In this document: piece after piece, positions 529-57,627 of the stretch
Layout of the letters: the number at the start of each line of letters is the position of its first letter
How positions within the stretch are numbered: position 1 is the first letter of the stretch
Assembly (NCBI GenBank): GCA_041671725.1
Contig: JBAZAY010000007.1
Location: forward strand, 7,253-71,252
Direction of reading: 5' to 3'
Source of the DNA: Gallionella sp.
Lineage (GTDB): Bacteria; Pseudomonadota; Gammaproteobacteria; Burkholderiales; Gallionellaceae
DNA length: 64,000 nt
Made by a program: the position numbers and the translations under genes
Notes under the pieces: model-generated
What the model saw: only the letters and a program-made list of their open reading frames with translations
Databases searched by the model: none
What the model was told of the DNA's origin: nothing

Positions 529-780
529 GGGCGGCATTGTACGGCAAGCCATGAATCAGCAGGCAGTACAAAACGTCATAAAAGAATTGGACAAGGTCAA
601 CAAGGAACTGGAAAACGGCGCTAGGCCGGTTTACTATCCCGCCCGACGAACAGATGTCGCAGCATTATGAAATTCTGTTCAGCAGCTTCCCGGCAAAAGC
701 ATCACGCCAATTGATTGTTTCCTTCGACCGGAATGAGTAAGCGTTTCAACAGGCAATTACGATATAGCCCAGGGATCACC

Positions 781-2886
781 ATGCCACATCACATATTCGA
801 AGACGTAAAAGCAATGCAGGAACTGGTTGATGTTTTGCCGATTGCAATTTTTATCAAAAACGCCAAAAGCCAGTTTCAGCTGATGAATAAGGCTTGCGAA
901 GAACAATGGGGAATGTGTTTCTCAGACCTACACGGAACGGACGCCAGTCAATTTTTCCCGCCAGACCAGATGGAGTGGTTCCTCGCCAAGGATAGAGAAA
1001 TTTTCATCGGTGGAAGTCAGGTTGATTTTGAAGAATCGTTCTGGAATGCGACACTTGGGCAAAACCGCATCGGCCACACTTTCAAGAAGCCAATTTATGA
1101 TGCCGCTGGAAATCCCCTTTATTTGATCTGCTTAACGATCGATATCACCGATAGAAAAAAGACTAATCAAGAATTGCGCTTGAATGAAGAAAAACTTCGC
1201 GCAATGTTTGATATGTCTCCGCTGGGTATGGTAAGAAATTCCATGGACGGTGCCTTTATTGAAGCCAATAATTCCCTGTTGAATATTGTCGGTTATTCGC
1301 TGCAGGAGCTGAATCGTCTCAGTTACTGGGATCTGACACCGGATTGCTACGCAGAACAGGAGCAGCAGCAACTGGAGTCGCTCAGAACAAGTGGCAAATA
1401 TGGGCCTTATGAAAAGGAATACATCAACAACCGTGGTCAACGCGTTCCGGTTCGCCTGAACGGAGTCCAAATCACCGGGAGCGATGGCGAAAAATTCATC
1501 TGGTCAATTATTGAAGACATTACCGAACGCAAGGGTGCAGAACAACAAATTCACCAGCTCGCTTTCTTCGATCCGCTCACTGACTTACCTAACCGCCGAC
1601 TGTTGATGGATCGTTTACGCCAGGCACTCTCGGCAAGCGTACGCAATGGACAGCATGGTGCGGTAATCTTCATCGATCTTGATAACTTCAAGACGCTTAA
1701 TGACAGACATGGGCATGATGTCGGCGATTTGCTGCTACTCGAAGTCGCCAGACGCCTGAAAACCTGTGTGCGCGAAGGCGATACCGTAGCCCGACTTGGG
1801 GGCGATGAATTTGTCGTCGTACTGGAAACACTCAGTGTCAATCTGGATGACGCGGCCACACAAGCTGAACTCGTTACAGAGGAAATACAATCAAGCTTAA
1901 ATCAGACCTATCAGCTTAAAGAATACTTGCATTACAGCACGTCCAGCATCGGCATTGTCCTGTTCAGGGGGCATCAGGAAAGCATTGAAAATATAATCAG
2001 GCATGCAGATACGGCCATGTATCAAGCCAAGGCTGCGGGGCGCAATGCAATCCGGTTCTATGACCCGGAGATGCAGGCTGCAATAGAATTGCGTGCCGAA
2101 CTTGAAAATGAGTTGCGTCAGGCACTCGACAAGCAGCAATTCCGCCTGTTTTATCAAATTCAGGTCGACAGCATACGGCGTTCATTAGGTGCGGAGGTGC
2201 TGATACGCTGGGTACATCCTGAACGTGGACTGGTATCCCCCGCTCAATTCATCCCGCTTGCCGAAGAAACCGGACTCATCGTGCCGATAGGGCTATGGGT
2301 ACTGCAAACCGCAGCCGCACAGCTCAAAACCTGGCAGCAGAACCCGCTGACGCGTGATCTGACGTTAGCGGTCAATGTCAGTGCCCGGCAATTTCAGCTG
2401 CCCAACTTCCATAGCCAGGTACAACAAATACTATTGACAAGTGGCGCTGATCCGACCCGACTAAAACTTGAATTAACCGAAGGGACCGTCCTGGAACAGA
2501 TTGAAGAATCAACTGCCAAGATGCACGATCTAAAAAAACTGGGCGTACGTTTTTCCATGGATGATTTTGGCACCGGCTATTCCTCTCTGGCTTATCTGAC
2601 GCAACTGCCGCTCGATCAACTGAAAATCGACCAGTCATTTGTACGAAACATCGGCGTAAAACCTACCGATGCGGTGATCGCGCAAACCATCATCGGCATG
2701 GCTAACAATCTGGGCATGGAAGTCATAGCAGAAGGTGTGGAGACAGAGGCGCAATGTGCTTTTCTGGAACAAAATGGCTGTTCGTTGTATCAGGGATATC
2801 TATTCGGCAAGCCGGTACCGCTGGCAGAGTTTGAGGAAAAATTGTCGGTTTACGTCCCGGTTTATACGGCGGATAGTCAGGCCTGA
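781..2886 (+). CDS. PAS-PAS-GGDEF-EAL signalling protein (diguanylate cyclase/phosphodiesterase)
   Basis: Two PAS-like segments are followed by RxxD (REGD) and an intact GGDEF (ARLGGDEFVVVL). The EAL domain motifs are EVLIRW, ELTEG, DDFGTGYSSL, KIDQSF and QGYLFGKP. The ORF opens at TTG 715. I prefer ATG 781 (AGGGA upstream); ATG 733 is also possible. Confidence 0.9.
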   Translation: MPHHIFEDVKAMQELVDVLPIAIFIKNAKSQFQLMNKACEEQWGMCFSDLHGTDASQFFPPDQMEWFLAKDREIFIGGSQVDFEESFWNATLGQNRIGHTFKKPIYDAAGNPLYLICLTIDITDRKKTNQELRLNEEKLRAMFDMSPLGMVRNSMDGAFIEANNSLLNIVGYSLQELNRLSYWDLTPDCYAEQEQQQLESLRTSGKYGPYEKEYINNRGQRVPVRLNGVQITGSDGEKFIWSIIEDITERKGAEQQIHQLAFFDPLTDLPNRRLLMDRLRQALSASVRNGQHGAVIFIDLDNFKTLNDRHGHDVGDLLLLEVARRLKTCVREGDTVARLGGDEFVVVLETLSVNLDDAATQAELVTEEIQSSLNQTYQLKEYLHYSTSSIGIVLFRGHQESIENIIRHADTAMYQAKAAGRNAIRFYDPEMQAAIELRAELENELRQALDKQQFRLFYQIQVDSIRRSLGAEVLIRWVHPERGLVSPAQFIPLAEETGLIVPIGLWVLQTAAAQLKTWQQNPLTRDLTLAVNVSARQFQLPNFHSQVQQILLTSGADPTRLKLELTEGTVLEQIEESTAKMHDLKKLGVRFSMDDFGTGYSSLAYLTQLPLDQLKIDQSFVRNIGVKPTDAVIAQTIIGMANNLGMEVIAEGVETEAQCAFLEQNGCSLYQGYLFGKPVPLAEFEEKLSVYVPVYTADSQA

Positions 2887-18153: not shown

Positions 18154-18708
18154 TTAAGCGCGCTTTTTGAACTCATTGGTGCGAGTGTCGATTTCGATCT
18201 TGTCGCCGATTTCAACGAAAGCCGCAACCGGCAACTCAAATCCACCGTTGATCTTGGCAGGCTTCATCACCTTGCCGGAGGTATCGCCGCGCACAGCAGG
18301 TTCCGTGTAGATCACTTCGCGTACGATGGTGTTAGGCAGTTCGACGGAAATCGCCTTGTCGTTGTAGAACACCACTTCACACGGCATGCCGTCCTGAACG
18401 TAGTTGAGCGCATCGCCCATGCATTCCGCTTCGATTTCGTACTGGTTGTATTCTTCGTCCATGAATACATACATAGGCTCAGCGAAGTAAGAGTAAGTCA
18501 CTTCTTTGCGATCCAGAATGACCTGATCGAACTTGTCGTCGGCGCTGAATACGGTCTCTCTGGCCGATTCGGTCAACAGATTCTTCATCTTCATCTTGAC
18601 CACCGAACCGTTACGACCGGAACGGCTGTATTCCGCCTTCAGGATTACCATCGGATCAGTACCGACCATAATGACGTTGCCGGCGCGTAGTTCTTGTGCT
18701 GTTTTCAT
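18154..18708 (-). CDS. efp: Elongation factor P (Arg32-type)
   Basis: [16 protein letters not shown]...[18 protein letters not shown]. The conserved loop carries Arg32 rather than Lys34, which is the EarP-modified type. ATG 18708 lies 2 nt after the earP stop. Confidence 0.95.
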
Positions 18709-18710
18709 GT

Positions 18711-20069
18711 TCACTGCCCTTCATTTTCGAAGGCGCGCATTCTACCGATTTCCTGAAAAAAATCCAGTAAATTCAATGCCAGATTGTTTTCCGATAATTC
18801 CCGCGCCCAAGCCTGGGCCCGAACATTCAGCTCCCCGCGTGCAGCGTCAAATAACGCCCAAGCCTGTCCTGAGCCTGCCGAAGCGGCCTGCCCTTCATCA
18901 TCGCCGCCATTCCATGCCCGCCACAAATCCTGCATCGCCCGGGCAGCCTGCGGACTGAGCTGTGCGTTAACGTAAAACTCGCGTAGCGATTCGTTTGCCC
19001 CTTCCCTCTCTGACGGGGGAAGGTTGGGATGGGGAAAACGGGCATGCCGAATTTTATTATTAGAGGTGGTAACTTTTTCATGCCCGTTGTACAGATTCAA
19101 AAAGGCCTGCAACTTCTCCCAGTGCACCGCATCGTGCTGCGGATAGATCTGCCAGATAAATGGCTTGCCTGCCCATTGCGCCCTCACACAGGAATCCTCG
19201 CCGCGCACGAAGTTGATGTCGCATGCCCACAGCAGTTCGTCGTAACGTTCCTGTTCCACAAACGGCAGCACACGCACCTGCAGGTTGCCGCGTTCATAGG
19301 AGCGACTTTCCTGACCCGCGAAATAGTGCACCACTTGAGGCAATATCCGACCTTCCGGCACCAGACACAACACGCGCTGTTCGCCATCCGCCCAAGCATC
19401 GAACAGACTTCCCAGCGCCGCATTCTCATAGGCGAACAACGAAATTTTACGGGTATCGCTTGCGGGCATCTGCATGCCGATGGATTGCCAGAAGGCTTGC
19501 TGCTTTGTAACGTCGCTCAGAAATTCATCGCGCCGCGCCAACAGGTCGCGTTCCAGCAACAGACCGCCGGTTTTTTGGGTAAAGCCGGGGAAGAAAAAAT
19601 AGCGGGTCAGCGGCGGGCGGGGGGATGGCAGTTTGTGACACCCTTCCACCCAATCCTCGGCAGACAGATATTCCAGATTGATCCAGACGGATTGCGCAGT
19701 CATCGCCGCCAGATAGGATTCCGGCATCGCACAGCCGAACGCCTCGATCACCAGTTCGGCAGGCTGCACAGCGGAAGGGTCACCGCATTGCGGCGGGGAA
19801 CCCACCGGCGTACTCCTTGCGGGTGCATCAGGAAATTCTTTGCGCCACAGCCGCACCTCAACCCCTCGCCTATGCTGGCTTTCAAGCGCAGTATCGGCTT
19901 CCGGGCACAGCTTGGCAAAGCTTTCCAGATCATCCACCCACAACCGCACAACAATACCGAACTCATTCGCCAGCTGCCGCGCCAGCCGCCAGCTCACGCC
20001 GATATCGCCGTAATTATCGATCACGTTGCAGAAGATATCGCAAGTAGCAGGTTGACTGCCGGGTTTCAT
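18711..20069 (-). CDS. earP: EF-P arginine-32 rhamnosyltransferase EarP (DUF2331)
   Basis: The N-terminus [24 protein letters not shown] is the EarP signature, and the gene sits directly upstream of an R32-type efp. At 452 aa it appears longer than characterised EarP proteins, which I recall (not verified here) as roughly 380 aa. Confidence 0.88.
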
Positions 20070-20097
20070 TTCATCCCTGCCGCGTCTGCTTCAAATC

Positions 20098-23000
20098 TCA
20101 TTTTTTTGCGCTCCACTCAAACCCTGCCTCATCAAGAAGGCATTCACGATCTAATTGTAATTTTCCGTTTTTCTTAAGTTGCCGCTGCCGAACCACCCAT
20201 CCCCCAAGCTGCGGATTTTCTGCCCAGTGTGTTGGAACCCTACAATTTCCATGCGCCAATTTATATTGAAGCATTTCATCAAAATATTCTTTCCATACTT
20301 CATTTATGCCATCTTCGCCAACTTTCGTACCTTTACCCTCCCATTTAAACCCTGCATCGTCAAGCAGACGAACTCGCTCGGCATGCAATGTTCCATTTCT
20401 CTTGAGTGTGCGCTGTTGATTCACCCAATTTTGCAGCTGAGCTTTTTCATACCGACCCGTTGGAACATTGCAATCCCCATGCACCTGTTTGTATTGAAGC
20501 AATTCGTCAAAACGCTTTTTCCAAGCCTCATTCATACCATCTTCGCCAATTTTCGTGCCTTTACCTTCCCACATAAATCCCACTGCGTTCAGTTTAGCCA
20601 CTCGTTCTGCTGAAAGCGTTCCTTTATTTTTCTGAACGCGAGTTGCATTTACGAATGCAGCAAGTTTAGGCGGTTCGGCCAGACTCATAGGAATATCGCA
20701 ATGACCATGCTTAGCTTTAAACTCAACCACTTCTGCAAGACGATCTTCCCAGGAGCCCCTTTCGCGGAGCTTCCAGGCAAAACCTATCTTGTCCAGCAAA
20801 CCGACTTGTTCATCCGTCAGTGCATTTTTCTTTCGTAGTTCTCGTTGCGACCCAACCCACGAAGCAAGTTGTGGATATTCCGTACTTCTATTTGGCACAT
20901 CAGAATTACCAATTTCTAAATGATATTTCTTAAGTTGCTCATACTGCGCTTGCCACTTGGTGTCGCGAATCCCACTTTCCCACTCCACTCCGAGCTCATT
21001 CAACATAGCTTCGCGTTCAGATTGAAGTTGCCCTTCCCTTTTGTATGCGCGCTGTATCGTTAGCCAGCTAAAAAGGGGAGCATAACTATCCCTCTCAAAC
21101 TCGACATTGCAATGACCAAACTTAATCTTAAACGCCTTCAATTTTTCAAACTGCGCCAACCACTTTCCATCTTGGGCATCCCAATGAAAACCAAGCTTAT
21201 CAAGCAATTCAACCTGCTCAGCCATCAACTGTTTCCCCGAATAATCCCGTTCGCGCCGAACACGCTGAATCCATACCCAACTTGCCAGCTTGGTATTTGA
21301 ATGAGTTCTAGGCACATGGGGATTACCATTCTCATGAGCATATTTTTCCAGTTCCCTGTACCACTTCATCCATGTTTCGTCAGTTTTCTGCTGCTGATAA
21401 TCCCATATAAAACCTACTTCATTCAGCCGCTCGATCCGATCTTCTGGCAGCCCTCCGCTATTCTTTCGAACACGCAGAGTAGAAACCCAAGCGGCAAGGT
21501 CATCCCATTCATCTTCGCCCTTTACAACATTGCAATGACCATATCGTTGCTTAAACTCAAGCAATTTTTCAAACCACTCGCTCCATGCACTATCCTGCAT
21601 ATTCCAGACAAACCCAAGGTTGTCTAGACGCAAAATCTTATCCTCAGTCAATGCACCTTTACCTCTCCGGGTACGTTGCGCAGACACCCAAGAGCTAAGA
21701 GAACGATCCTCTTTCCATCCCACATCAACATTGCAATGTCCAAATCGCTCTTTAAAATCTTGTAGCTTGCCAAACCAACTATCCCAAGAAGAAACAAGTT
21801 TTTCTACACAGCGTGTCGCGACCGCTGTTCTCAGGTTCGCCAACGATATGCACGCACCAACAAAATCAATACGGTCAGCATATCCTCTGTCGTCAAAGCC
21901 TTTGCCATGCCCCTTTTGCTCGCCCGCATAACGGATGAATTCTGCCAACACTTCATCCTGTTCTTGAAGCGATTGCAGCACATCCCACACCTCATCAAAC
22001 TCTGCACGACTGACTGCAGTTTCGACACTTTCTCCTGCAGCCACTTCAACATATAGCGGCACAAGTACATAGCCCATGCTTTTCCCATCTGCGCGACGCA
22101 TTGCTCGCCCCGTCGCCTGAACAATGTCCACGCGACTTCGTCTTGGAGAAAGGAATGCGACCATATCTACCGCCGGAACATCTACGCCTTCAGTCAGGCA
22201 GCGGGCATTAGACATAACTGCCTGATTCGCCTTTCTGAATTCATCCATCACACGGTCTCGTCGTGCTGTCGGCATTTCTCCGTTGACGTGATAGCTTTTG
22301 AATTCAACCAAATGTGTGCGAATTCCTTCGTTTCCATCGGACACAAAAGAAGCAGCCGATTTAACGGTCTTATGGAAAGTGAAGATTTTCTTGACGCCAT
22401 ATTTTTCAACTGCATCGCAAAGTGCTATTTGGTTAGCAACTTGCCTTGCACGGACGGCATCACCATTGATAAGCACATCTCCTCGACTGAGAAGTTCATC
22501 TGTTACCATTTCTGAAGTAATTACTGAAATGATTACCTTATAGTTACAAATAATTCCACGACGTGCCGCCTCTCCAAATGTGATGACATAAGCTTGCTTG
22601 CCATAAACCTCAGGATTATCCATAGAGTAGGCAATTTGCGCCTCACCCTCCTTATCTCGCTGATGAGGATTGTAGTGTCTAGGGGTGGCAGTCAAAAACA
22701 TACGTTTTCGAATCGGAAGTCTTATATCGTCCAGCGCAAAGCCATAATTCCTTCCCTCTCGGCCAGCAGTCTTGTGCGCCTCGTCGAAAACACCAAAATC
22801 AAAAGGTATTTTGATCCCGTCTACATCTACGGGCATGCCCTCAGCCACAACATGCGCAGACTGATAGGTGGAGAAAATCACTTTCACACCATCAAATGGC
22901 TTGGTAAGAAAATTGCGAATTGCAGAACTGGCTGTCGTCACCGGAAAATCGAGGTCGGCCTGATGAACGATGAGGTCATCGGCATCTTTCGCCACCGTAG

Positions 23001-23793
23001 GGTCGGAGCAAACACACTGGAAGGTAAGCGCATCCCAAGATGTTTCGCGCAGCCATTCGTGCAGTAGTTGGCGCACCAAGGCCAGCGAGGGCAACAGCAC
23101 CAGAATATTGCGGCAGCCGCGTTGCTCTGCGGCCCACAGCGCGACCAGCGACTTGCCCGTGCCACAAGCCATCACAACGGTGGCGCGATCGTTATCATTC
23201 AGCTCGCTGGCAATTGCGGCCAGCGCTTCCGCCTGATGCGGCAATGGTTGCTTGCGCGAGAGTTTGATTTGTCCGCTTTGCAGCCACAGCCGCATGACTT
23301 CGAAGTCTTCCGGAGTGAGGCGATCGAGGTCGCTGCCGCGTATCGCGATGAAGCCGCTACGGTCACGCATCAGTCCAGGCAATGTTTCACAGTTGGTAAA
23401 CAGCACGCGCTGACTGACCTGATCGGTCAGCCCCATGAAGGTGGAGAGTTCATCCCAGGTCAGCGCGGGACGATTGCTGCGGAACTTGACCTGATAGGCA
23501 CGCAGTTCGCCATCGTGCGTCTGATAGGTTCCATCAACGCCCATGTCCCGGCCGGTATCCAGTGAAAGCAGTTTGCGCTGTTCCAGCGGGACAGCTTCAA
23601 ACGGCCAAACTTCGCGCGCCTCGTTGATTTTCTGTGTAGCGAGGTAGGCTTCGGCAAACACCTCGAAGGCATCGCCGCGTTCCTTGTTGCCAGGTTGCGC
23701 AGAAATTCGCGCTTCGATTTCAGCGAAGGAGTTCAGGCCATCGAACAGGCCGGATGCAATAAAACGGTGAGCGGCGCTATGTCTTGATTTCAT
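20098..23793 (-). CDS. 1231-aa fusion: Mrr-like PD-(D/E)xK nuclease domain + SF2 DEAD/DEAH-type helicase + eight helicase-associated (HA) repeats
   Basis: Nuclease-like motif DMGVDG..x12..YQVKFR (aa 83-105). Helicase motif I is ACGTGKS, motif II is FDEAH, and motif VI region is QATGRAMR. Eight C-terminal repeats follow the pattern W..W/F..KL..FK..GHCNV. Confidence 0.85.
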   Translation of the reverse strand: MKSRHSAAHRFIASGLFDGLNSFAEIEARISAQPGNKERGDAFEVFAEAYLATQKINEAREVWPFEAVPLEQRKLLSLDTGRDMGVDGTYQTHDGELRAYQVKFRSNRPALTWDELSTFMGLTDQVSQRVLFTNCETLPGLMRDRSGFIAIRGSDLDRLTPEDFEVMRLWLQSGQIKLSRKQPLPHQAEALAAIASELNDNDRATVVMACGTGKSLVALWAAEQRGCRNILVLLPSLALVRQLLHEWLRETSWDALTFQCVCSDPTVAKDADDLIVHQADLDFPVTTASSAIRNFLTKPFDGVKVIFSTYQSAHVVAEGMPVDVDGIKIPFDFGVFDEAHKTAGREGRNYGFALDDIRLPIRKRMFLTATPRHYNPHQRDKEGEAQIAYSMDNPEVYGKQAYVITFGEAARRGIICNYKVIISVITSEMVTDELLSRGDVLINGDAVRARQVANQIALCDAVEKYGVKKIFTFHKTVKSAASFVSDGNEGIRTHLVEFKSYHVNGEMPTARRDRVMDEFRKANQAVMSNARCLTEGVDVPAVDMVAFLSPRRSRVDIVQATGRAMRRADGKSMGYVLVPLYVEVAAGESVETAVSRAEFDEVWDVLQSLQEQDEVLAEFIRYAGEQKGHGKGFDDRGYADRIDFVGACISLANLRTAVATRCVEKLVSSWDSWFGKLQDFKERFGHCNVDVGWKEDRSLSSWVSAQRTRRGKGALTEDKILRLDNLGFVWNMQDSAWSEWFEKLLEFKQRYGHCNVVKGEDEWDDLAAWVSTLRVRKNSGGLPEDRIERLNEVGFIWDYQQQKTDETWMKWYRELEKYAHENGNPHVPRTHSNTKLASWVWIQRVRRERDYSGKQLMAEQVELLDKLGFHWDAQDGKWLAQFEKLKAFKIKFGHCNVEFERDSYAPLFSWLTIQRAYKREGQLQSEREAMLNELGVEWESGIRDTKWQAQYEQLKKYHLEIGNSDVPNRSTEYPQLASWVGSQRELRKKNALTDEQVGLLDKIGFAWKLRERGSWEDRLAEVVEFKAKHGHCDIPMSLAEPPKLAAFVNATRVQKNKGTLSAERVAKLNAVGFMWEGKGTKIGEDGMNEAWKKRFDELLQYKQVHGDCNVPTGRYEKAQLQNWVNQQRTLKRNGTLHAERVRLLDDAGFKWEGKGTKVGEDGINEVWKEYFDEMLQYKLAHGNCRVPTHWAENPQLGGWVVRQRQLKKNGKLQLDRECLLDEAGFEWSAKK
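20101..21792 (-). repeat. Array of eight approximately 70-75-codon HA-domain repeats inside the helicase gene
   Basis: WFGKLQDFKERFGHCNV, WFEKLLEFKQRYGHCNV, WYRELEKYAHENGNPHV, QFEKLKAFKIKFGHCNV, QYEQLKKYHLEIGNSDV, RLAEVVEFKAKHGHCDI, RFDELLQYKQVHGDCNV, YFDEMLQYKLAHGNCRV. The last two units are the most alike. Confidence 0.85.
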
Positions 23794-23923
23794 TTTTCAT
23801 TCGAATTGGATAGTTCCTGCGGCTTGATGACACAATGAACAACGGGCATTGTGTTGCAAATTGCAAAATACAAAGGAATTGGAATCGAATTAAATTCACG
23901 CTCCGCAGTCGGCGCAGCATGAT

Positions 23924-24220
23924 TCATTTATTGGATAGTTTTGCCCTTATCCAGTTTGGATTGCGGCGACAGTCAAGAATAGCAAAGACCAAGACTTCAT
24001 CGCCAGCAACACGGTAATACACGGCAAATGGAAATCGTTTGGAAAGCAGCCGATGGTAGCCCAGCACCACGCGGTGTACGCCGGCGAAATAGGCGAGCGA
24101 GTCAATATCAGAGTAGAGCGTGTCCAGAAAATAGCTGCCGAGATCGTCAGCTTGTGACTCATAGAATCGGTAACCTTCTTCGAGATCGTCCTCTGCGACA
24201 CTGAGGATTTTTATTCTCAT
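23924..24220 (-). CDS. Type II toxin, RelE/ParE family
   Basis: 98 aa. MRIKILSVAEDDLEEGYRFY...FPFAVYYRVAGDEVLVFAILDCRRNP is typical of ParE-like toxins. The ATG overlaps the antitoxin stop (ATGA). Confidence 0.8.
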   Translation of the reverse strand: MRIKILSVAEDDLEEGYRFYESQADDLGSYFLDTLYSDIDSLAYFAGVHRVVLGYHRLLSKRFPFAVYYRVAGDEVLVFAILDCRRNPNWIRAKLSNK

Positions 24221-24438
24221 GAAACGTTTTTCTTGATTCTTTCCTTGGCATCTGCCCAGTTTGACACCGTTATTTTGCCGGCCTCCAGCGCCGCCTCGCG
24301 ATCCTTAAGAATGGCTTCGTGCCAAACCGGTGACTCCAGTTTTTTTTCGTTGCCTGTCATGTCCGCCCAAAGTGTTTCCATCAAAGCCAGTTTTTGGGTG
24401 AATGACATCTGTGTAACGGGAAAATCTAAAGTCTTCAT
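24217..24438 (-). CDS. Putative addiction-module antitoxin (TIGR02574-like)
   Basis: 73 aa: MKTLDFPVTQMSFTQKLALMETLWADM...WHEAILKDREAALEAG. AAGGA RBS. 4-nt overlap with the toxin. ATG 24438 is preferred over the ORF-track start at 24516. Confidence 0.7.
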   Translation of the reverse strand: MKTLDFPVTQMSFTQKLALMETLWADMTGNEKKLESPVWHEAILKDREAALEAGKITVSNWADAKERIKKNVS

Positions 24439-24618
24439 CCTGCATCCTTTCCTATGACTAACGGGCATGGCAGTTTTCATGGCGGCAACATTAAATCTTA
24501 TCGGACTAAATGGCAATAGCTTCTATGTCATTCGATTCCGGCACAATACGCTTCGCTATCGCGGCCCTGCCACAGACTCACACAAACAATAATTACCATA
24601 TTATTCAAATACTTAAAG

Positions 24619-26394
24619 TCAGATCAACCAGCCAGGCGAATGCATTTTTCGGGCTGGCGGAGTGGCATAGTCCGGCTCTCCCGCTATACCCAGTTGCGCT
24701 GACAACGATGGGGTAGAAAACAAATAAAAATCGGTCGTCGCATTGCACCTGTTTTCCAGACTGATCGCAAATTCCTGTTTATTACGGCGCATCGCAAGCT
24801 TGTCGAAACCGGGCAAAATATCCATAGGTGGGAACATCAGCCCCCAGCCACCCAGTCGCTTCTTGTTGTACACCAGCAGCGCCGGCTTTGCCTGAGTCAT
24901 ACCGGACTGTGTCTGCTCGGTCGCATTCACGGTCATCGTGACCGCTTCGGCATAATTGGCAATACTGTTCATATCGATCACCACCACCTTGTGAGAGGGG
25001 CGGTAAATACGTGAAACCACAGCCAGACTGGGACGAGCGATGTCCTCCCCTACACCATAAGCCACCAGCGATCCTATGCTCATCGGCGTCGTAAAACTGG
25101 TTTCCTGTGTGCTCAGGCGGATCATTTTTTCGTTCTGGAACAACAAAGTCCACACACTCTTTTCGGTAGCGATATGATCTTCCGCGAGTAACGCGGAGCG
25201 CTTGGCCAGCATATCCGCCAGACGATCTTCTGAACCATATAGCCCCTGCTTATGGCGGAGCAGGGAAAAAACTTCCGCGAAACCCACGAAAATTCGCAAA
25301 TCTTCTACCCGGGTTTCTTTTTCCGTACACGCATCACCGGCGAGACTCTCCACCCCCCTCAACAACTGATCGGAAATAACAAAGTGCTCGGCTCCCGGCA
25401 AACGCGCAAAACGAGGGGGTATTGCAGAACCATCACGATTAGCCTGCATCAGGCCCATGCAGTCCTTGCGAATCGCATTATTCAAACCGCTGCAATTAAA
25501 AATCATTGCCGGTCCCGGCGGACTATCCAGCATCTGCCCGCACGCCTGCTGTCCGCCATAACAATACGCGATCAGTTCGTCACGCCCGAGCTTGCTTCCC
25601 CCTTCATCCGTCCTGATTTGTACGGCTTGCTCGACACCTTGCAAATAACCGATGATTATCCACTGCAAATGCGTGGGCCAACGCAGCATGTCAAATCTGG
25701 CAACCATCTGCAGACAACTGTAATGCTCGCTCAGACAAACGTCCGTGCGACTTCCCCCCAGTTCCAGCTCCTGCTTCAGGGTTGGCAACGGTTGTTCAAC
25801 ATCTTCATAACGACTCAGCACATAGAAAAGCGTATTGGCAACCTGCCAGTCCTGCTCAGCCAACAACTGATAGCGCAACGCGCGGGCCTGCTGCTTTAGC
25901 TGCATCAATTCAAAAATGCGTGAAGCGCATTCAAGAACCGTATCGCGTGCTCTGGCGTATTTGTAATTGCTGCTGCCGTAATAGAAGGCAAACAATATCT
26001 GATAGGACGTGATCAATATTTGCGCGATGTCCACCAGCTGATTCAGCGTCTGCTTGCGATCCTCATCCTCGGGAATACCGCCGGTTTTGGCGTGCCGGGC
26101 TATCTGGGCCAGCGCCATCGGGTAATATAGTTTTACAATATCGCGCGTCAAGGTCAGGCGCTGCTGCGTCTTCAATGAACAGCGATTGACGTGCTTTATC
26201 TCAGCCAGCAACACCCTGAAATACTCCTGGGGTCTATCTTTGGCCTCATCCAGCTGACGATTCAAATCACCGTCACTCGAATTACTTGCTTCAACCCTGC
26301 CAGACAGCTTCGGCAATACAAATTGCAAAGGCAGCACGCGTGCCGGCAGATCGGTACCGAAAAAACGTTGGATTACAGTCAACAATCGCCGCAT
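24619..26394 (-). CDS. Hypothetical 591-aa protein with no motif I can recognise
   Basis: Long uninterrupted ORF on the same strand as its neighbours. No signal peptide or TM helix is visible. The N-terminal half looks helical and the C-terminal half looks beta-rich. Confidence 0.7.
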   Translation of the reverse strand: MRRLLTVIQRFFGTDLPARVLPLQFVLPKLSGRVEASNSSDGDLNRQLDEAKDRPQEYFRVLLAEIKHVNRCSLKTQQRLTLTRDIVKLYYPMALAQIARHAKTGGIPEDEDRKQTLNQLVDIAQILITSYQILFAFYYGSSNYKYARARDTVLECASRIFELMQLKQQARALRYQLLAEQDWQVANTLFYVLSRYEDVEQPLPTLKQELELGGSRTDVCLSEHYSCLQMVARFDMLRWPTHLQWIIIGYLQGVEQAVQIRTDEGGSKLGRDELIAYCYGGQQACGQMLDSPPGPAMIFNCSGLNNAIRKDCMGLMQANRDGSAIPPRFARLPGAEHFVISDQLLRGVESLAGDACTEKETRVEDLRIFVGFAEVFSLLRHKQGLYGSEDRLADMLAKRSALLAEDHIATEKSVWTLLFQNEKMIRLSTQETSFTTPMSIGSLVAYGVGEDIARPSLAVVSRIYRPSHKVVVIDMNSIANYAEAVTMTVNATEQTQSGMTQAKPALLVYNKKRLGGWGLMFPPMDILPGFDKLAMRRNKQEFAISLENRCNATTDFYLFSTPSLSAQLGIAGEPDYATPPARKMHSPGWLI

Positions 26395-26470: not shown

Positions 26471-27130
26471 TTAAACTACCGGCTTGCCATAGCTGACAAA
26501 GCGCTGCTGTGCGTCCATGAATTCATTATGGGTCAGCAAAACCGGCTCGCCGACAGCCAGGGTGCGCAGGTAAAGCTCGCTCAGATTTTCCACTTCCATG
26601 GTATTCCGGTAAGCCTCGGCAAGGTTTTTTCCTGCCGCGATCATGCCGTGGTTCGCCAGCAGGCAAGCGCGGCGTTCACGCATGGCGATCAGTGCGTTAT
26701 CGGATAGGGCTTGCGTGCCGAAGGTTGCATAGTTGGCACAACGCAGGCTGTTGCCGCCCAACAAGGCCAGCATGTAATGAAACGGCGGAATATCGCGCCT
26801 CATGCAGGCCAGCGCCGTCGCCGCATTGGAATGCGTATGGATCACCGCACCAAATTCGGGGCGCTGCACATAAATGTCGCGATGGAACAGCCATTCGCTG
26901 GACGGTTGCCAGCGCCCGCGCGACCGACCGGAAAGCTCCACAAACACGATATCGTCTTCAGTCAGTCCTTCCGCACCGAAACCGGAAGGCGTAATCAAAA
27001 ATCCCTCGCCAAAATGCGCACTGATATTGCCCGACGTACCGTGACTCAGGCCAAGGGCTTCCAGCTTGTTGGTGACGCGCACCAGCTCGGTGCGTAGTTC
27101 CTGTTCGTTCATTAAAAGTTCCCATTTCAA
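26471..27130 (-). CDS. Class II aldolase/adducin-family protein, either MtnB-type dehydratase or Ald2-type methylthioribulose-1-P aldolase
   Basis: HGTSGNIS substrate loop and the Zn-ligand region VIHTHS..LANHG. The gene lies immediately downstream of mtnA. ATG 27112 (MNEQEL..) is an alternative start. Confidence 0.8.
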   Translation of the reverse strand: MKWELLMNEQELRTELVRVTNKLEALGLSHGTSGNISAHFGEGFLITPSGFGAEGLTEDDIVFVELSGRSRGRWQPSSEWLFHRDIYVQRPEFGAVIHTHSNAATALACMRRDIPPFHYMLALLGGNSLRCANYATFGTQALSDNALIAMRERRACLLANHGMIAAGKNLAEAYRNTMEVENLSELYLRTLAVGEPVLLTHNEFMDAQQRFVSYGKPVV

Positions 27131-30264: not shown

Positions 30265-31149
30265 CTAACTCTCCAACATGGATTTATAGATAAAATTCTG
30301 CAGCATAGTCAGATCCATGCCCAAAGTCGGAACAAATTCGATGCCATGCATCACCACCTTGTCACCCGTCTGGCTATCGGTCTCCACATGTACATTGCGG
30401 ATTACCGACGACACCAGGAATACCTGAATCTCGCCCCCTACTTGCATACGCAGCCCCACTGATACCGCGTCACCCACCTGACCGAAGGCTTTGCCGGCGT
30501 GAATACGCGCACCGGAAATACTCATGTCTTCGATGATCGCCGACATTTTAGTGCCGGTAGCCGCTGAGTCCACCGTGCATACCAGCCTGAGTTTGACGCG
30601 CACAGTCGCGCGCATATTGGTCGTCTTGACCTGAGAGGGAAAGGCCAGATGCAGATAAGGGAAAGGGGTCAGACCAACGCTGATCACATTGCTGCTGAAC
30701 TCGTAGGTTTTGGTGCCCGAAAATCCGCGCACCAGAAATGCATGGCCTTCCTTGATAAAACTCAGCTTTTCTTCTTGCCTGGGATGGGATACCAGCACAC
30801 TTTTTTTATTCATGAAACCGATCAATTTCACAAAATAACGCTGTTTGTCCGGGGAAAAATCCTGCAATTGCAGCGTATCGCCGATGACAAGTTTGATCGA
30901 CAGGAAATCCTCTATTTTCTCTACCGGCACGCGCTTTACACCTGCCGAATCCGTGACGGCACTTTTCTCCGCGACACGCCCGGCCTCGCGAAACAAGCCA
31001 TTTTCCGCAAGTCCATCGAGCTGCCGCGCTGATTCGACCACAAACCCCTCACGCAGCAGCAAGCGCCCGAATTTATCGTATACCGACCATGCCAGCGGTA
31101 TGCCGAGTTGAATGTCCTTGTGTCTGACCGGCCGCAAATTATCGTCCAC
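30265..31149 (-). CDS. PilZ-domain protein with YcgR-like two-domain architecture
   Basis: The C-terminal PilZ has RxxxR (RATVR) and DxSxxG (DMSISGA). The N-terminal approximately 170 aa form a beta-rich PilZN-like region. Confidence 0.75.
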   Translation of the reverse strand: MDDNLRPVRHKDIQLGIPLAWSVYDKFGRLLLREGFVVESARQLDGLAENGLFREAGRVAEKSAVTDSAGVKRVPVEKIEDFLSIKLVIGDTLQLQDFSPDKQRYFVKLIGFMNKKSVLVSHPRQEEKLSFIKEGHAFLVRGFSGTKTYEFSSNVISVGLTPFPYLHLAFPSQVKTTNMRATVRVKLRLVCTVDSAATGTKMSAIIEDMSISGARIHAGKAFGQVGDAVSVGLRMQVGGEIQVFLVSSVIRNVHVETDSQTGDKVVMHGIEFVPTLGMDLTMLQNFIYKSMLES

Positions 31150-55857: not shown

Positions 55858-57627
55858 ATGAGAAGAGTAGCTGCGGCAGTGTTTCTGGTAATGGGGATTG
55901 CCAGCCCCGGTTTTGCATCGACTTTTTTCTTCCCCGGAACGCATCCCAGCTATATTTCAGGTGACGCACCCAACTGGTTGCATGACGGTCACGGCCGCGA
56001 TGGGTATGTCACGATCGTATCCGAGGTGATCCCTGCAAGCAGTTGCGTTCCCTTGTCCAATCACAACTTTTGGGGAGGTGAAAAGACGCAATTGGTGCTG
56101 TCGATCACGACAAATGGCTTCAAAAACAATCTCGATAATGCCGAAATTCCGATTGCGGCATTCGATGGTCGCGATAACGGTTCCGAATGCGCATCCCTCA
56201 GCACCCTGCCTATCAGCGTGGTTCCGCTGGCGCTGCTGGGATCTTTTTCCTCTGCCAATCCCGGCAAGCTCTCTTTGGTTCTGAATGTAAAGAGCTCAAG
56301 CGACTCCAATCAGGATTTCATCGGCTCGGCAAAACTATTGCTGGGCGCGGCCGCGATGGTTGTATCAGGAGGAACGGCCACCGCGATCAGCGGCATTGCA
56401 GCAACCGTCGGCAATCCTGTTTTATCCGAGGCGCAAACCAGAACCAACACGCTGATGCAGGGCATGGTAAATGGGAAAACCCAGATTACCTTGACCTGGC
56501 CAAAACTGCGCAACGGGATACGCACGATTGAAATTCCCGTGTACAGAGCCGAGAGCAGTTTGGGCAGCAGCGCAGACAAGCGGATTCAAGAGCTGCAGGC
56601 TGAAAACAAGACCGAGAAAACCGTCCTGTTTACGGTCAGGCTCTCGTTCAGCTATGCCAGTTCATTGTTTGATCCTGCGACATCGGGTACTGCCGACCTG
56701 CCCAATCCAGACAGCGTCTCTACTGCAAATGTGCTGAATTATCAGATGATGAGCAGTCAGCATAATTTTTTACAAATCCTCAATGATACTTCTCCAAGCC
56801 TGCTGCAAATGACGGCGGCCGCCCAAGGGCGTGATCTGACCAATGCCTGCAGTATCGGGCTAAACAAGCTGACCCGGCTTGGTCTGAGCAATATGGATCT
56901 GGCGATCATTATGAAATCTTTTATTGACGAAGCCAAAGGGGGAGCTGGTTGGTATAACAATCCTGCCATGGTGAAAAATTGTTTTGCCCAGGTGCCTGGT
57001 GTACAAATTTTTCTGGAAAAGCTATACGGTGCTTCAAGTCCAAAATTTGTCATCGGTGATGTGCAGGATGGCATAGGCAAGCCCTATGCTGATTGGCGCG
57101 ATTTAATCGGACCCGCATTATCAAATTTCAGGAAGGCACTGATTGCAAAAGAAAATCGCGCCAGAATCCTGGCCGAATTTAATGGCAGGCATGATATTAA
57201 AGTTTCATTTGCACCGGAGATTCAGGCATGGCCGTCGCCTGCCGCTACCGATCCATCCACAAGCAATCAATATCCCGGCCTGGCAAAACTGGCAAATAAC
57301 GAAATAAAAACAATAGGTTGCTTCATATACAAAGATCCGGAAAATTTAAGCATCCACAACCCGGGAGCCTATTTTATTCTGGAAGGTTCAAATGAAAATT
57401 TCTGGCTTGGCGCGGTGAAATTGTCACCGGTGAATACGGGAGGGAGTGCGGGCGAGATTTCGAGCTTGCATGTATCTGAACTCACGTCAGATTGGGGAAA
57501 ACATTTTGCTTCATACAGTTATCCGGGTGGCGACTGCGCTGAAATCCTGACCCGATTCAACAGGAAAATCCTTGCGAACCTGGACAGCGCAGCGAACGGC
57601 AGTCTTGCTGTGCAAGCAAAACAGTGA
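55858..57627 (+). CDS. Hypothetical secreted 589-aa protein
   Basis: Signal peptide MRRVAAAVFLVMGIASPGFAS. No recognisable catalytic or repeat motif. Uninterrupted ORF. Confidence 0.65.
   Translation: MRRVAAAVFLVMGIASPGFASTFFFPGTHPSYISGDAPNWLHDGHGRDGYVTIVSEVIPASSCVPLSNHNFWGGEKTQLVLSITTNGFKNNLDNAEIPIAAFDGRDNGSECASLSTLPISVVPLALLGSFSSANPGKLSLVLNVKSSSDSNQDFIGSAKLLLGAAAMVVSGGTATAISGIAATVGNPVLSEAQTRTNTLMQGMVNGKTQITLTWPKLRNGIRTIEIPVYRAESSLGSSADKRIQELQAENKTEKTVLFTVRLSFSYASSLFDPATSGTADLPNPDSVSTANVLNYQMMSSQHNFLQILNDTSPSLLQMTAAAQGRDLTNACSIGLNKLTRLGLSNMDLAIIMKSFIDEAKGGAGWYNNPAMVKNCFAQVPGVQIFLEKLYGASSPKFVIGDVQDGIGKPYADWRDLIGPALSNFRKALIAKENRARILAEFNGRHDIKVSFAPEIQAWPSPAATDPSTSNQYPGLAKLANNEIKTIGCFIYKDPENLSIHNPGAYFILEGSNENFWLGAVKLSPVNTGGSAGEISSLHVSELTSDWGKHFASYSYPGGDCAEILTRFNRKILANLDSAANGSLAVQAKQ

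Follow-up and report, generated by a model that had tools for sequence, protein, structure and literature searches.

Type ISP restriction enzymes such as LlaBIII and LlaGI carry, in one polypeptide, an N-terminal Mrr-family nuclease followed by a superfamily 2 (SF2) translocase of double-stranded DNA (dsDNA), a coupler, a gamma-class N6-adenine methyltransferase and a target-recognition domain (TRD), and they cut once convergent translocation has led to a collision (PMC3553950, PMC4666363). Replacement by alanine of any one of the residues D74, D78 and K94 abolishes the Mrr nuclease activity (PMC3553963). The HA-helicases, an abundant family without experimentally assigned function, carry tandem helicase-associated (HA) domains C-terminal to an SF2 helicase. 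A protein with features of both groups is encoded in a stretch of 64,000 nucleotides of Gallionella sp. (assembly GCA_041671725.1, contig JBAZAY010000007.1, positions 7,253 to 71,252; hereafter the window), where a nuclease-helicase gene, a toxin-antitoxin (TA) pair with a ParE-family toxin, and a gene for a 591-residue protein occupy positions 20098-26394 on the minus strand. The reading favoured here, with moderate confidence, is that this block is a variable cargo slot upstream of earP-efp holding three independent co-directional modules, of which the TA pair has been swapped, the nuclease-helicase gene is a mosaic, and the nuclease-helicase is likeliest a stand-alone defence enzyme.

The nuclease-helicase gene (20098-23793 in the list of open reading frames, ORFs) encodes 1231 residues with Pfam matches to ResIII/DEAD, Helicase_C and eight HA repeats (PF03457, E-value (E) 3.8e-129); Mrr_cat_2 matches only weakly and misses the cut-off (E 9e-4). 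Alignment with LlaBIII places the Mrr-type nuclease domain at residues 36-165 (23299-23688) and, together with Pfam, the SF2 helicase-like motor at residues 182-617 (21943-23250), followed by the HA repeats, which Pfam matches in eight stretches (20101-21831). In the PDB the protein matches LlaBIII (4xqk, E 8e-55 over residues 36-617) and LlaGI (5ffj, E 5e-50); RadD and UvrB are weak secondary matches; the PADLOC model REase_MTase_IIG matches at E 1e-88, covering only positions 17-643 of its 1646, and plasmid genes named 'type ISP restriction/modification enzyme' are 30-32% identical over 94% of the N-terminal 640 residues. These matches agree with an earlier note on this DNA, made from the sequence by eye, which had read the protein as an Mrr-like nuclease joined to an SF2 helicase. 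Likeness to the Type ISP enzymes extends to the order of nuclease and translocase in one polypeptide and to the catalytic residues: D79, D87 and K103 align by HMMER with D74, D78 and K94 of LlaBIII, the catalytic residues of LlaGI and LlaBIII, and the motor motifs are intact, with a Walker A sequence GTGKS (residues 211-215), DEAH (residues 337-340) and a motif VI QATGRAMR (residue 559). The difference lies beyond the motor, where similarity to LlaBIII ends: no coupler or TRD was found in the protein, nor any methyltransferase match in Pfam, and the C-terminal 575 residues consist of HA repeats instead. Since methyltransferase and TRD are absent, the enzyme would have neither self-protection by methylation nor the target reading of Type ISP enzymes, and it is not a member of that type. 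Judged by its predicted domains it is a methylase-less Type ISP derivative within the HA-helicase family, with a nuclease and a motor that are both catalytically plausible.

Membership in the HA-helicase family is indicated by the combination of PF00270, PF00271, PF04851 and PF03457 shared with its homologues, and by the tandem HA repeats C-terminal to the SF2 helicase. At least 1810 proteins match at E<=1e-10, under names such as 'Helicase associated domain protein', and more than 100 database proteins of the same architecture are 66-89% identical over the N-terminal 640 residues; the relatives come from Gallionella, Sideroxydans, Malikia, Rugosibacter, Pedobacter and Verrucomicrobia metagenome-assembled genomes (MAGs). 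No close relative was found in phage records, the best being 28% identical, in Listeria phage contigs. The window copy differs from the rest of the family in being among the longest (eight repeats and 1231 residues, against a typical length of ~1000-1090) and in being a chimera of two family lineages. Its last HA repeat matches 2kta, a nuclear magnetic resonance structure from Bacteroides vulgatus and the only solved HA domain, and the paper on that structure reports indications of DNA binding. The repeats have diverged in DNA, where a 52-nt unit recurs five times with 60-75% identity, and TRF found no tandem array at the DNA level. The 130-nt spacer before the gene contains a perfect 8-bp inverted repeat, ACACAATG-N9-CATTGTGT (23830-23854, minus strand, read from the sequence), with no run of T after it; this repeat is possibly an operator, and it is not conserved upstream of the helicase homologues elsewhere.

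The block lies between housekeeping genes, all on the minus strand: an mtnB-like class II aldolase gene on the left (26471-27130, Pfam Aldolase_II E 8e-51), on the side of mtnA (Pfam match IF-2B), and on the right earP (18711-20069, Pfam EarP E 3e-144) and efp (18154-18714, Pfam EF-P domains). Coordinates and Pfam matches thus bear out the earlier description of four co-directional minus-strand genes between the aldolase gene and earP-efp. A scan centred on earP, with one genome per species and tblastn with the window proteins, gave 80 loci, all from Gallionellaceae/Nitrosomonadales MAGs (loci are given L numbers here and homologous proteins P numbers). The site can be empty: the aldolase gene abuts earP in L021, and all that separates the two genes is 9 bp in L031 or 247-366 bp in the loci L046 and L048. 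Elsewhere the same position holds different cargo: a homologue of the 591-residue protein, PaaA2 with a 95-aa ORF, an FMN_bind_2 gene and a TumE pair in L001; a homologue of the 591-residue protein and a TumE pair in L005; a homologue of the 591-residue protein, PaaA2 and a DUF2281/PemK pair in L009; PaaA2/ParE alone in L022; and PaaA2/ParE, the helicase and a 112- or 138-aa ORF, without the 591-residue protein, in L100-L102. Variation reaches the level of strains, for L004 and L001 are 98.7% identical in nucleotide sequence up to the toxin gene, beyond which L004, in place of the other cargo of L001, continues with PaaA2/ParE and then the beginning of a helicase gene (95% nucleotide identity to L100). 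In every configuration seen, the cargo is co-directional with earP-efp. The site upstream of earP-efp is therefore a genuine recombination-prone variable cargo slot in Gallionellaceae, and the earlier note, which had called the stretch accessory and proposed comparing synteny, stands corroborated on this point by the empty sites and by the different cargo at the others. As a whole the locus is ordinary: a small hotspot at which TA pairs and a nuclease-helicase come and go.

A classical integrase-borne genomic island was considered and rejected: no integrase is found among the genes adjoining the block, no tRNA gene in the window and no direct repeats flanking the slot, so turnover looks like homologous or illegitimate recombination rather than an integrase-mediated process. 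Alignment upstream of earP gave no information on the right junction. Among other arrangements of the site, L051 from another Gallionella MAG has an 8-kb insertion between aldolase gene and earP (L051:1916-10001) with non-defence cargo, in which translations read by eye resemble a REP-associated tyrosine transposase, a large FAD/cNMP-type protein, a multihaem protein, a metallophosphoesterase and a cytochrome c. In about half of the sampled Gallionellaceae, earP follows not the mtn genes but a macB/ftsX-type ABC transporter (L024:6558-9916 and 31 other loci); a 40-member ORF family that seemed to lie upstream of earP in 32 loci proved to be an out-of-frame artefact of the conserved macB/ftsX gene at the boundary of the search, and Rfam has no match upstream of earP in those loci and none in the window. 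A helicase gene is inserted between the macB/ftsX-type transporter and earP in L019, so that the helicase tracks the earP side in two backgrounds.

The nuclease-helicase gene itself is composite. G+C content in 1-kb intervals of the window has a mean of 0.542 and a standard deviation of 0.037, with the lowest value, 0.447, at 20251-21250; of the 11 intervals more than two standard deviations below the mean, six belong to the region 20.0-22.75 kb and one more spans the ParE/antitoxin pair. The most AT-rich stretch in the window is the 3' three-quarters of the helicase gene, a measurement that confirms the AT-richness noticed by eye in the 3' half. Third-codon-position G+C content (GC3) is 0.58-0.74 in the flanking host genes, 0.595 in the gene for the 591-residue protein, 0.505 in the ParE toxin gene, and within the helicase gene 0.58-0.73, host-like, over codons 1-270, then 0.30-0.52 over codons ~271-1231. 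The closest relatives change at the same place: residues 1-270 are 93% identical to P0078/P0079, which reach 61-63% over residues 271-640, where P0183/P0187 are 77-79% identical, having 54-56% identity over residues 1-270. By blastn, the first 1039 bp of the gene are 85.9% identical to L100, the locus of P0079, a level matched by the flanking housekeeping genes (80-88%), and nucleotide similarity to L100 ends at 22766, beside the DEAH codons (22774-22785), with none 3' of there. Sliding GC3, segment identities and blastn together delimit a recombination breakpoint zone around DEAH at 22766-22984 on the minus strand. Because the 5' part is as similar to L100 as housekeeping genes are, the helicase was already at the site in the common ancestor, and because composition and relatives switch at DEAH, its 3' three-quarters were replaced by a lower-GC allele of another lineage. 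An independent 2833-bp contig (L103) spans the junction and matches the window with 100% identity, which argues against an assembly chimera. The gene thus documents allele swapping within a gene of this kind at a conserved motor motif.

Three loci have a small ORF of 112-138 codons after the helicase gene (L019:11004-11420, L101:6750-7166 and L100:12291-12629) that the window lacks; it has a weak PFIN match (E 0.008) and a GRHR motif, and its product could be a partner or regulator of the helicase. In L025 a 76-aa ORF directly upstream of earP (L025:9721-9951) consists of helicase residues 1-42 joined to 33 residues from the C-terminal end of the small ORF product, and this fusion marks it as a deletion scar of the helicase cassette; a WYL/WCX regulator gene (L025:8565-9662) precedes it.

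The modules occur independently of one another. The helicase is found without the 591-residue protein in L015-L019, in L100-L102 and in 59 metagenome loci, the latter from a scan with the motor segment that gave 60 loci including L103; all 59 lack homologues of the 591-residue protein, the antitoxin, ParE, PaaA2, EarP and the aldolase. Conversely, homologues of the 591-residue protein occur without the helicase in L001, L005, L007, L009, L011, L012, L013 and L014. The 591-residue protein and the helicase are together only at this chromosomal site, in the window, the identical contig L103 and the strain variant L004. A ParE-type TA pair directly upstream of the helicase is likewise confined to this locus, being PF09720/ParE in the window and PaaA2/ParE in L004 and L100-L102. 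Elsewhere the helicase gene keeps varied company: after mnmA, with a WYL/WCX regulator gene downstream, in L015; after a WYL/WCX gene and a gene for an Ank-HA-BRCT protein in L016-L018, with an integrase nearby in L018. Across 19 of the scanned metagenome loci, 116 neighbouring ORFs match 141 Pfam families with no recurrent partner, the commonest being AAA_19/UvrD-like (four times), then Fic, integrase and FRG (twice each), and no methyltransferase is among the families listed. The helicase gene behaves as a stand-alone module.

The likeliest role of such an enzyme, with a nearly even chance of being right, is to defend the cell against foreign DNA. In this mechanism the HA array would hold DNA, the SF2 motor would translocate along dsDNA, and the Mrr nuclease, like that of Type ISP enzymes, would cut when the motor stalls or collides. 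Since there is no cognate methylase, discrimination must come from elsewhere, and self would be sorted from non-self by something other than methylation, perhaps recognition of modified DNA or tight regulation. At the site itself, the helicase was resident in the ancestor, a later crossover near DEAH brought in the lower-GC 3' three-quarters, comprising the second half of the motor and the HA array, and the TA pair and the helicase were exchanged in separate recombination events. It is possible, though doubtful, that the HA-helicases at large are a methylase-less offshoot of the Type ISP enzymes that confers single-gene immunity, the HA repeats reading modified or non-self DNA, the retained Mrr nuclease and SF2 translocase cutting it, and specificity diversifying by swaps of the motor-HA half of the gene at conserved helicase motifs, of the kind seen in the window. 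If this is indeed an immune enzyme, it would show a translocating restriction nuclease working without a cognate methylase and would give the HA domain a function.

Several points weigh against this defence role. PADLOC-DB v2 contains no complete system that matches the block, the matches of the helicase being partial (models of restriction-modification, PbeA, DpdF and the Cas3 helicase), and among helicase neighbours PADLOC finds only scattered matches (two each of GajB-like, SoFic and PDC-S15). No HA-array helicase appears to have an experimental precedent in phage defence. A methylase-less nuclease-translocase would endanger the genome that encodes it unless kept in check, and no element that could do so was identified here. 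A functional coupling of TA pair and helicase at this locus is also conceivable, the pair lying upstream in the window, L004 and L100-L102. Finally, some helicase homologues have BRCT domains (P0112, P0169, P0182 and P0186) or lie beside WYL regulators, which fits a role in DNA damage as well. On this alternative the HA nuclease-helicase is a patchily distributed enzyme of DNA repair, recombination or replication conflict and not an immune one. Besides the BRCT domains, the WYL/WCX regulators in L015-L018 and L025, the Ank-HA-BRCT protein, the lack of a methylase partner, the scarcity of canonical defence neighbours and the weak similarity to RadD and UvrB speak for it. It is nevertheless unlikely: restriction enzymes are by far the closest characterised relatives, the gene is patchily present among close relatives, has foreign composition and has undergone an intragenic allele swap, and an integrase lies near the helicase in L018. 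WYL regulators, moreover, also control defence systems.

The TA pair resembles type II modules of the ParDE kind in that a small antitoxin gene comes first and overlaps by 4 nt the gene for a toxin of ParE fold; the overlap, claimed in the earlier note, is visible as ATGA at 24217-24220. The toxin gene (23924-24220, minus strand, 98 aa) has a marginal match to ParE_toxin (PF05016, E 5.8e-5, 24.0 bits against a cut-off of 23, positions 5-88 of the 89 of the profile), so that the likeness to ParDE is marginal on the toxin side. The antitoxin ORF (24217-24516, minus strand, 99 aa counted from TTG) probably begins in reality at the ATG at 24438, where AAAGGA stands upstream, giving 73 aa (24217-24438), and its product matches Unstab_antitox (PF09720, E 1.2e-11; TIGR02574). 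The antitoxin differs from that of ParDE in being of this family and not ParD, and relatives carry PaaA2 in its place. About 150 nt after the stop of the gene for the 591-residue protein are conserved with L001, L004 and L009 through the PaaA2 ATG, then diverge into the PF09720 antitoxin; in the window this ATG survives at 24480-24478 with a few codons (24480-24469) as a relic of the PaaA2 start, and alignment of the four sequences defines 24466-24618 on the minus strand as the conserved intergenic region that marks the left junction of the cargo specific to the window. The conserved region and the relic indicate that an ancestral PaaA2/ParE pair was replaced by the PF09720/ParE pair. An imperfect 22-nt inverted repeat brackets the TA cassette (23881-23902 and 24518-24539, core GGAATCGAAT / ATTCGATTCC), which may mean nothing, since chance alone would be expected to give a 10-bp inverted match in 6.9 kb of sequence.

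Most likely the TA pair serves the slot as an addiction or stabilising module and does not belong to the enzyme. The alternative, that TA pair and helicase form a two-part unit in which the ParE module stabilises the cassette, backs up the nuclease-translocase by abortive infection or regulates it, is rather improbable. In its favour, the window, L004 and L100-L102 all have a ParE-family pair just before the helicase, a ParE-type pair again occupies that position after the swap, and the single promoter-like site that a promoter scan finds for the coding strand precedes the TA pair (24627-24600). Near the helicases of the 59 metagenome loci, however, there is not one homologue of ParE or the antitoxin, nor is there any in L015-L019; L001, L009 and L022 keep PaaA2/ParE in the slot but have no helicase there; and TA pair and helicase were exchanged by separate recombination tracts.

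The 591-residue protein (24619-26394, minus strand) is tentatively assigned as FimW-like. FimW of Pseudomonas aeruginosa (PA4958) is a PilZ-type effector of cyclic di-GMP (c-di-GMP) for type IV pili and is listed beside FimX (PA4959). The window protein has no match in Pfam-A (in a copy without PF27104), NCBIfam or PADLOC even at E 10, and PADLOC likewise has none for the TA genes; a profile of 34 homologues found nothing among PDB sequences, a repeat homologue search with the family alignment added no proteins, and ten distant members obtained no names on cluster look-up. It is far from alone, however: Gallionella and Rhodoferax MAGs supply 76 full-length homologues, 40-81% identical to it, and an exhaustive profile search yields ~261 clusters at 50% identity, mostly of 570-600 aa; the earlier statement that it was an orphan without recognisable motif thus holds as to library matches but not as to orphan status. 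In precomputed annotation, FimW_N (PF27104) is found in 13 of the 76 homologues, weakly in P0056 and P0065 and confidently in P0076, which aligns with the window protein over residues 62-293 (E 6e-18) and 366-465 (E 4e-12). The second of these blocks has in P0076 a weak PilZ hit and the sequence DISAGG, a PilZ-type DxSxxG.

Likeness to FimW, drawn through these relatives rather than by direct comparison, would lie in a length of ~590 aa, in the FimW_N matches of some homologues, in top fold matches of the MrkH/PlzD kind, and in the L007 homologue, which is directly preceded by a MHYT-PAS-GGDEF-EAL gene much as fimX stands beside fimW. AlphaFold 2 (AF2) models have a predicted local distance difference test score (pLDDT) of 84 for the full length and 72 for the C-terminal part; the full-length model is confident and has helical N-terminal two-thirds and two C-terminal beta-barrels. 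The top PDB fold matches of the two models, MrkH, PlzD/VCA0042, PlzA and BcsA-PilZ, are non-significant (E 0.02-1.4, TM ~0.25). Against the assignment stand the reading FQNEKM at the position of DISAGG, a PilZ (PF07238) match in only one of 80 family members scanned, and, for the window copy, fold matches at E 0.02-0.3 beside the missing library hit; the protein also differs from FimW in lacking a PilZ match, and, no RxxxR motif being found in it, it falls outside the PilZ signature. The sequence would therefore be that of a subfamily with a degenerate PilZ signature, and the protein is probably a long-resident adaptor of a c-di-GMP pathway or of pili, its near-native composition standing beside that of the host genes. 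This moves it, tentatively, out of the bin of orphans and defence genes and among FimW-like c-di-GMP effectors; a role in defence is unsupported.

The earlier note had gone further and read the 591-residue protein, TA pair and nuclease-helicase as a single defence or abortive-infection locus, with the 591-residue protein as sensor or effector. This is very improbable. The genes are co-directional and tightly packed, and the order of the 591-residue gene, a ParE-type TA pair and the helicase is repeated in L004, all of which would suit one system. The modules are nevertheless found apart: members of the 591-residue family stand beside greB (L011), a TonB receptor (L012), parC and an M48 peptidase gene (L014) or earP without any helicase; the helicase lacks a 591-residue homologue at eight loci besides the 59 metagenome loci; L100 pairs only TA and helicase, and L001 and L009 only the 591-residue homologue and TA; and the 591-residue gene is near-native in composition, unlike the other two modules. 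No known multi-gene PADLOC system covers them, and beyond this site the 591-residue protein and the helicase do not co-occur, an outcome of the kind that the earlier note itself had named as refuting a link between these two. Of the search by profiles proposed there, the part concerning domains succeeded for the helicase and the TA genes and failed for the 591-residue protein, for which, as for the block, no PADLOC system was returned.

A functional cargo link to EF-P rhamnosylation or translation is scarcely credible and was rejected on distribution and domain content. The helicase gene does directly precede earP in the window, L019 (left flank macB/ftsX) and L100-L102, L025 keeps a deletion scar of the helicase, and in L007 only 16 bp separate the 591-residue homologue from earP. 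Within 10 kb of earP, however, neither gene is present at most of the 80 Gallionellaceae loci, earP is missing from 59 of the helicase loci, and nothing in the domain content bears on translation. The stop codon of the helicase gene is separated from the ATG of earP by 28 nt (spacer 20070-20097, minus strand, read from the sequence), the distance given earlier, and no terminator-like site was found in it. Because the genes share a strand, with a short gap and no terminator-like site, read-through transcription of earP-efp from the cargo is plausible; at empty sites, where earP is contiguous with the aldolase gene, earP would be co-transcribed with the upstream genes.

Genes of c-di-GMP metabolism recur around the locus. 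A YcgR-like gene with PilZNR and PilZ domains (30265-31149, minus strand) is conserved upstream of the mtn genes, and PAS-GGDEF-EAL genes are found in the window (715-2886, plus strand) and, in relatives, beside the FimW-like gene or efp (L001, L005, L007, L009 and L100). A further ORF of 589 aa without Pfam match lies on the plus strand at 55858-57627, in another low-GC patch (~56.75-58.0 kb, G+C ~0.465); it was ruled out as a paralogue of the 591-residue protein, the two being unrelated by BLASTP or hhalign. The EarP protein of the window (18711-20069) has 452 aa, against 387-445 aa in most relatives, and its Pfam EarP match falls in two stretches, which suggests an insertion inside the protein.

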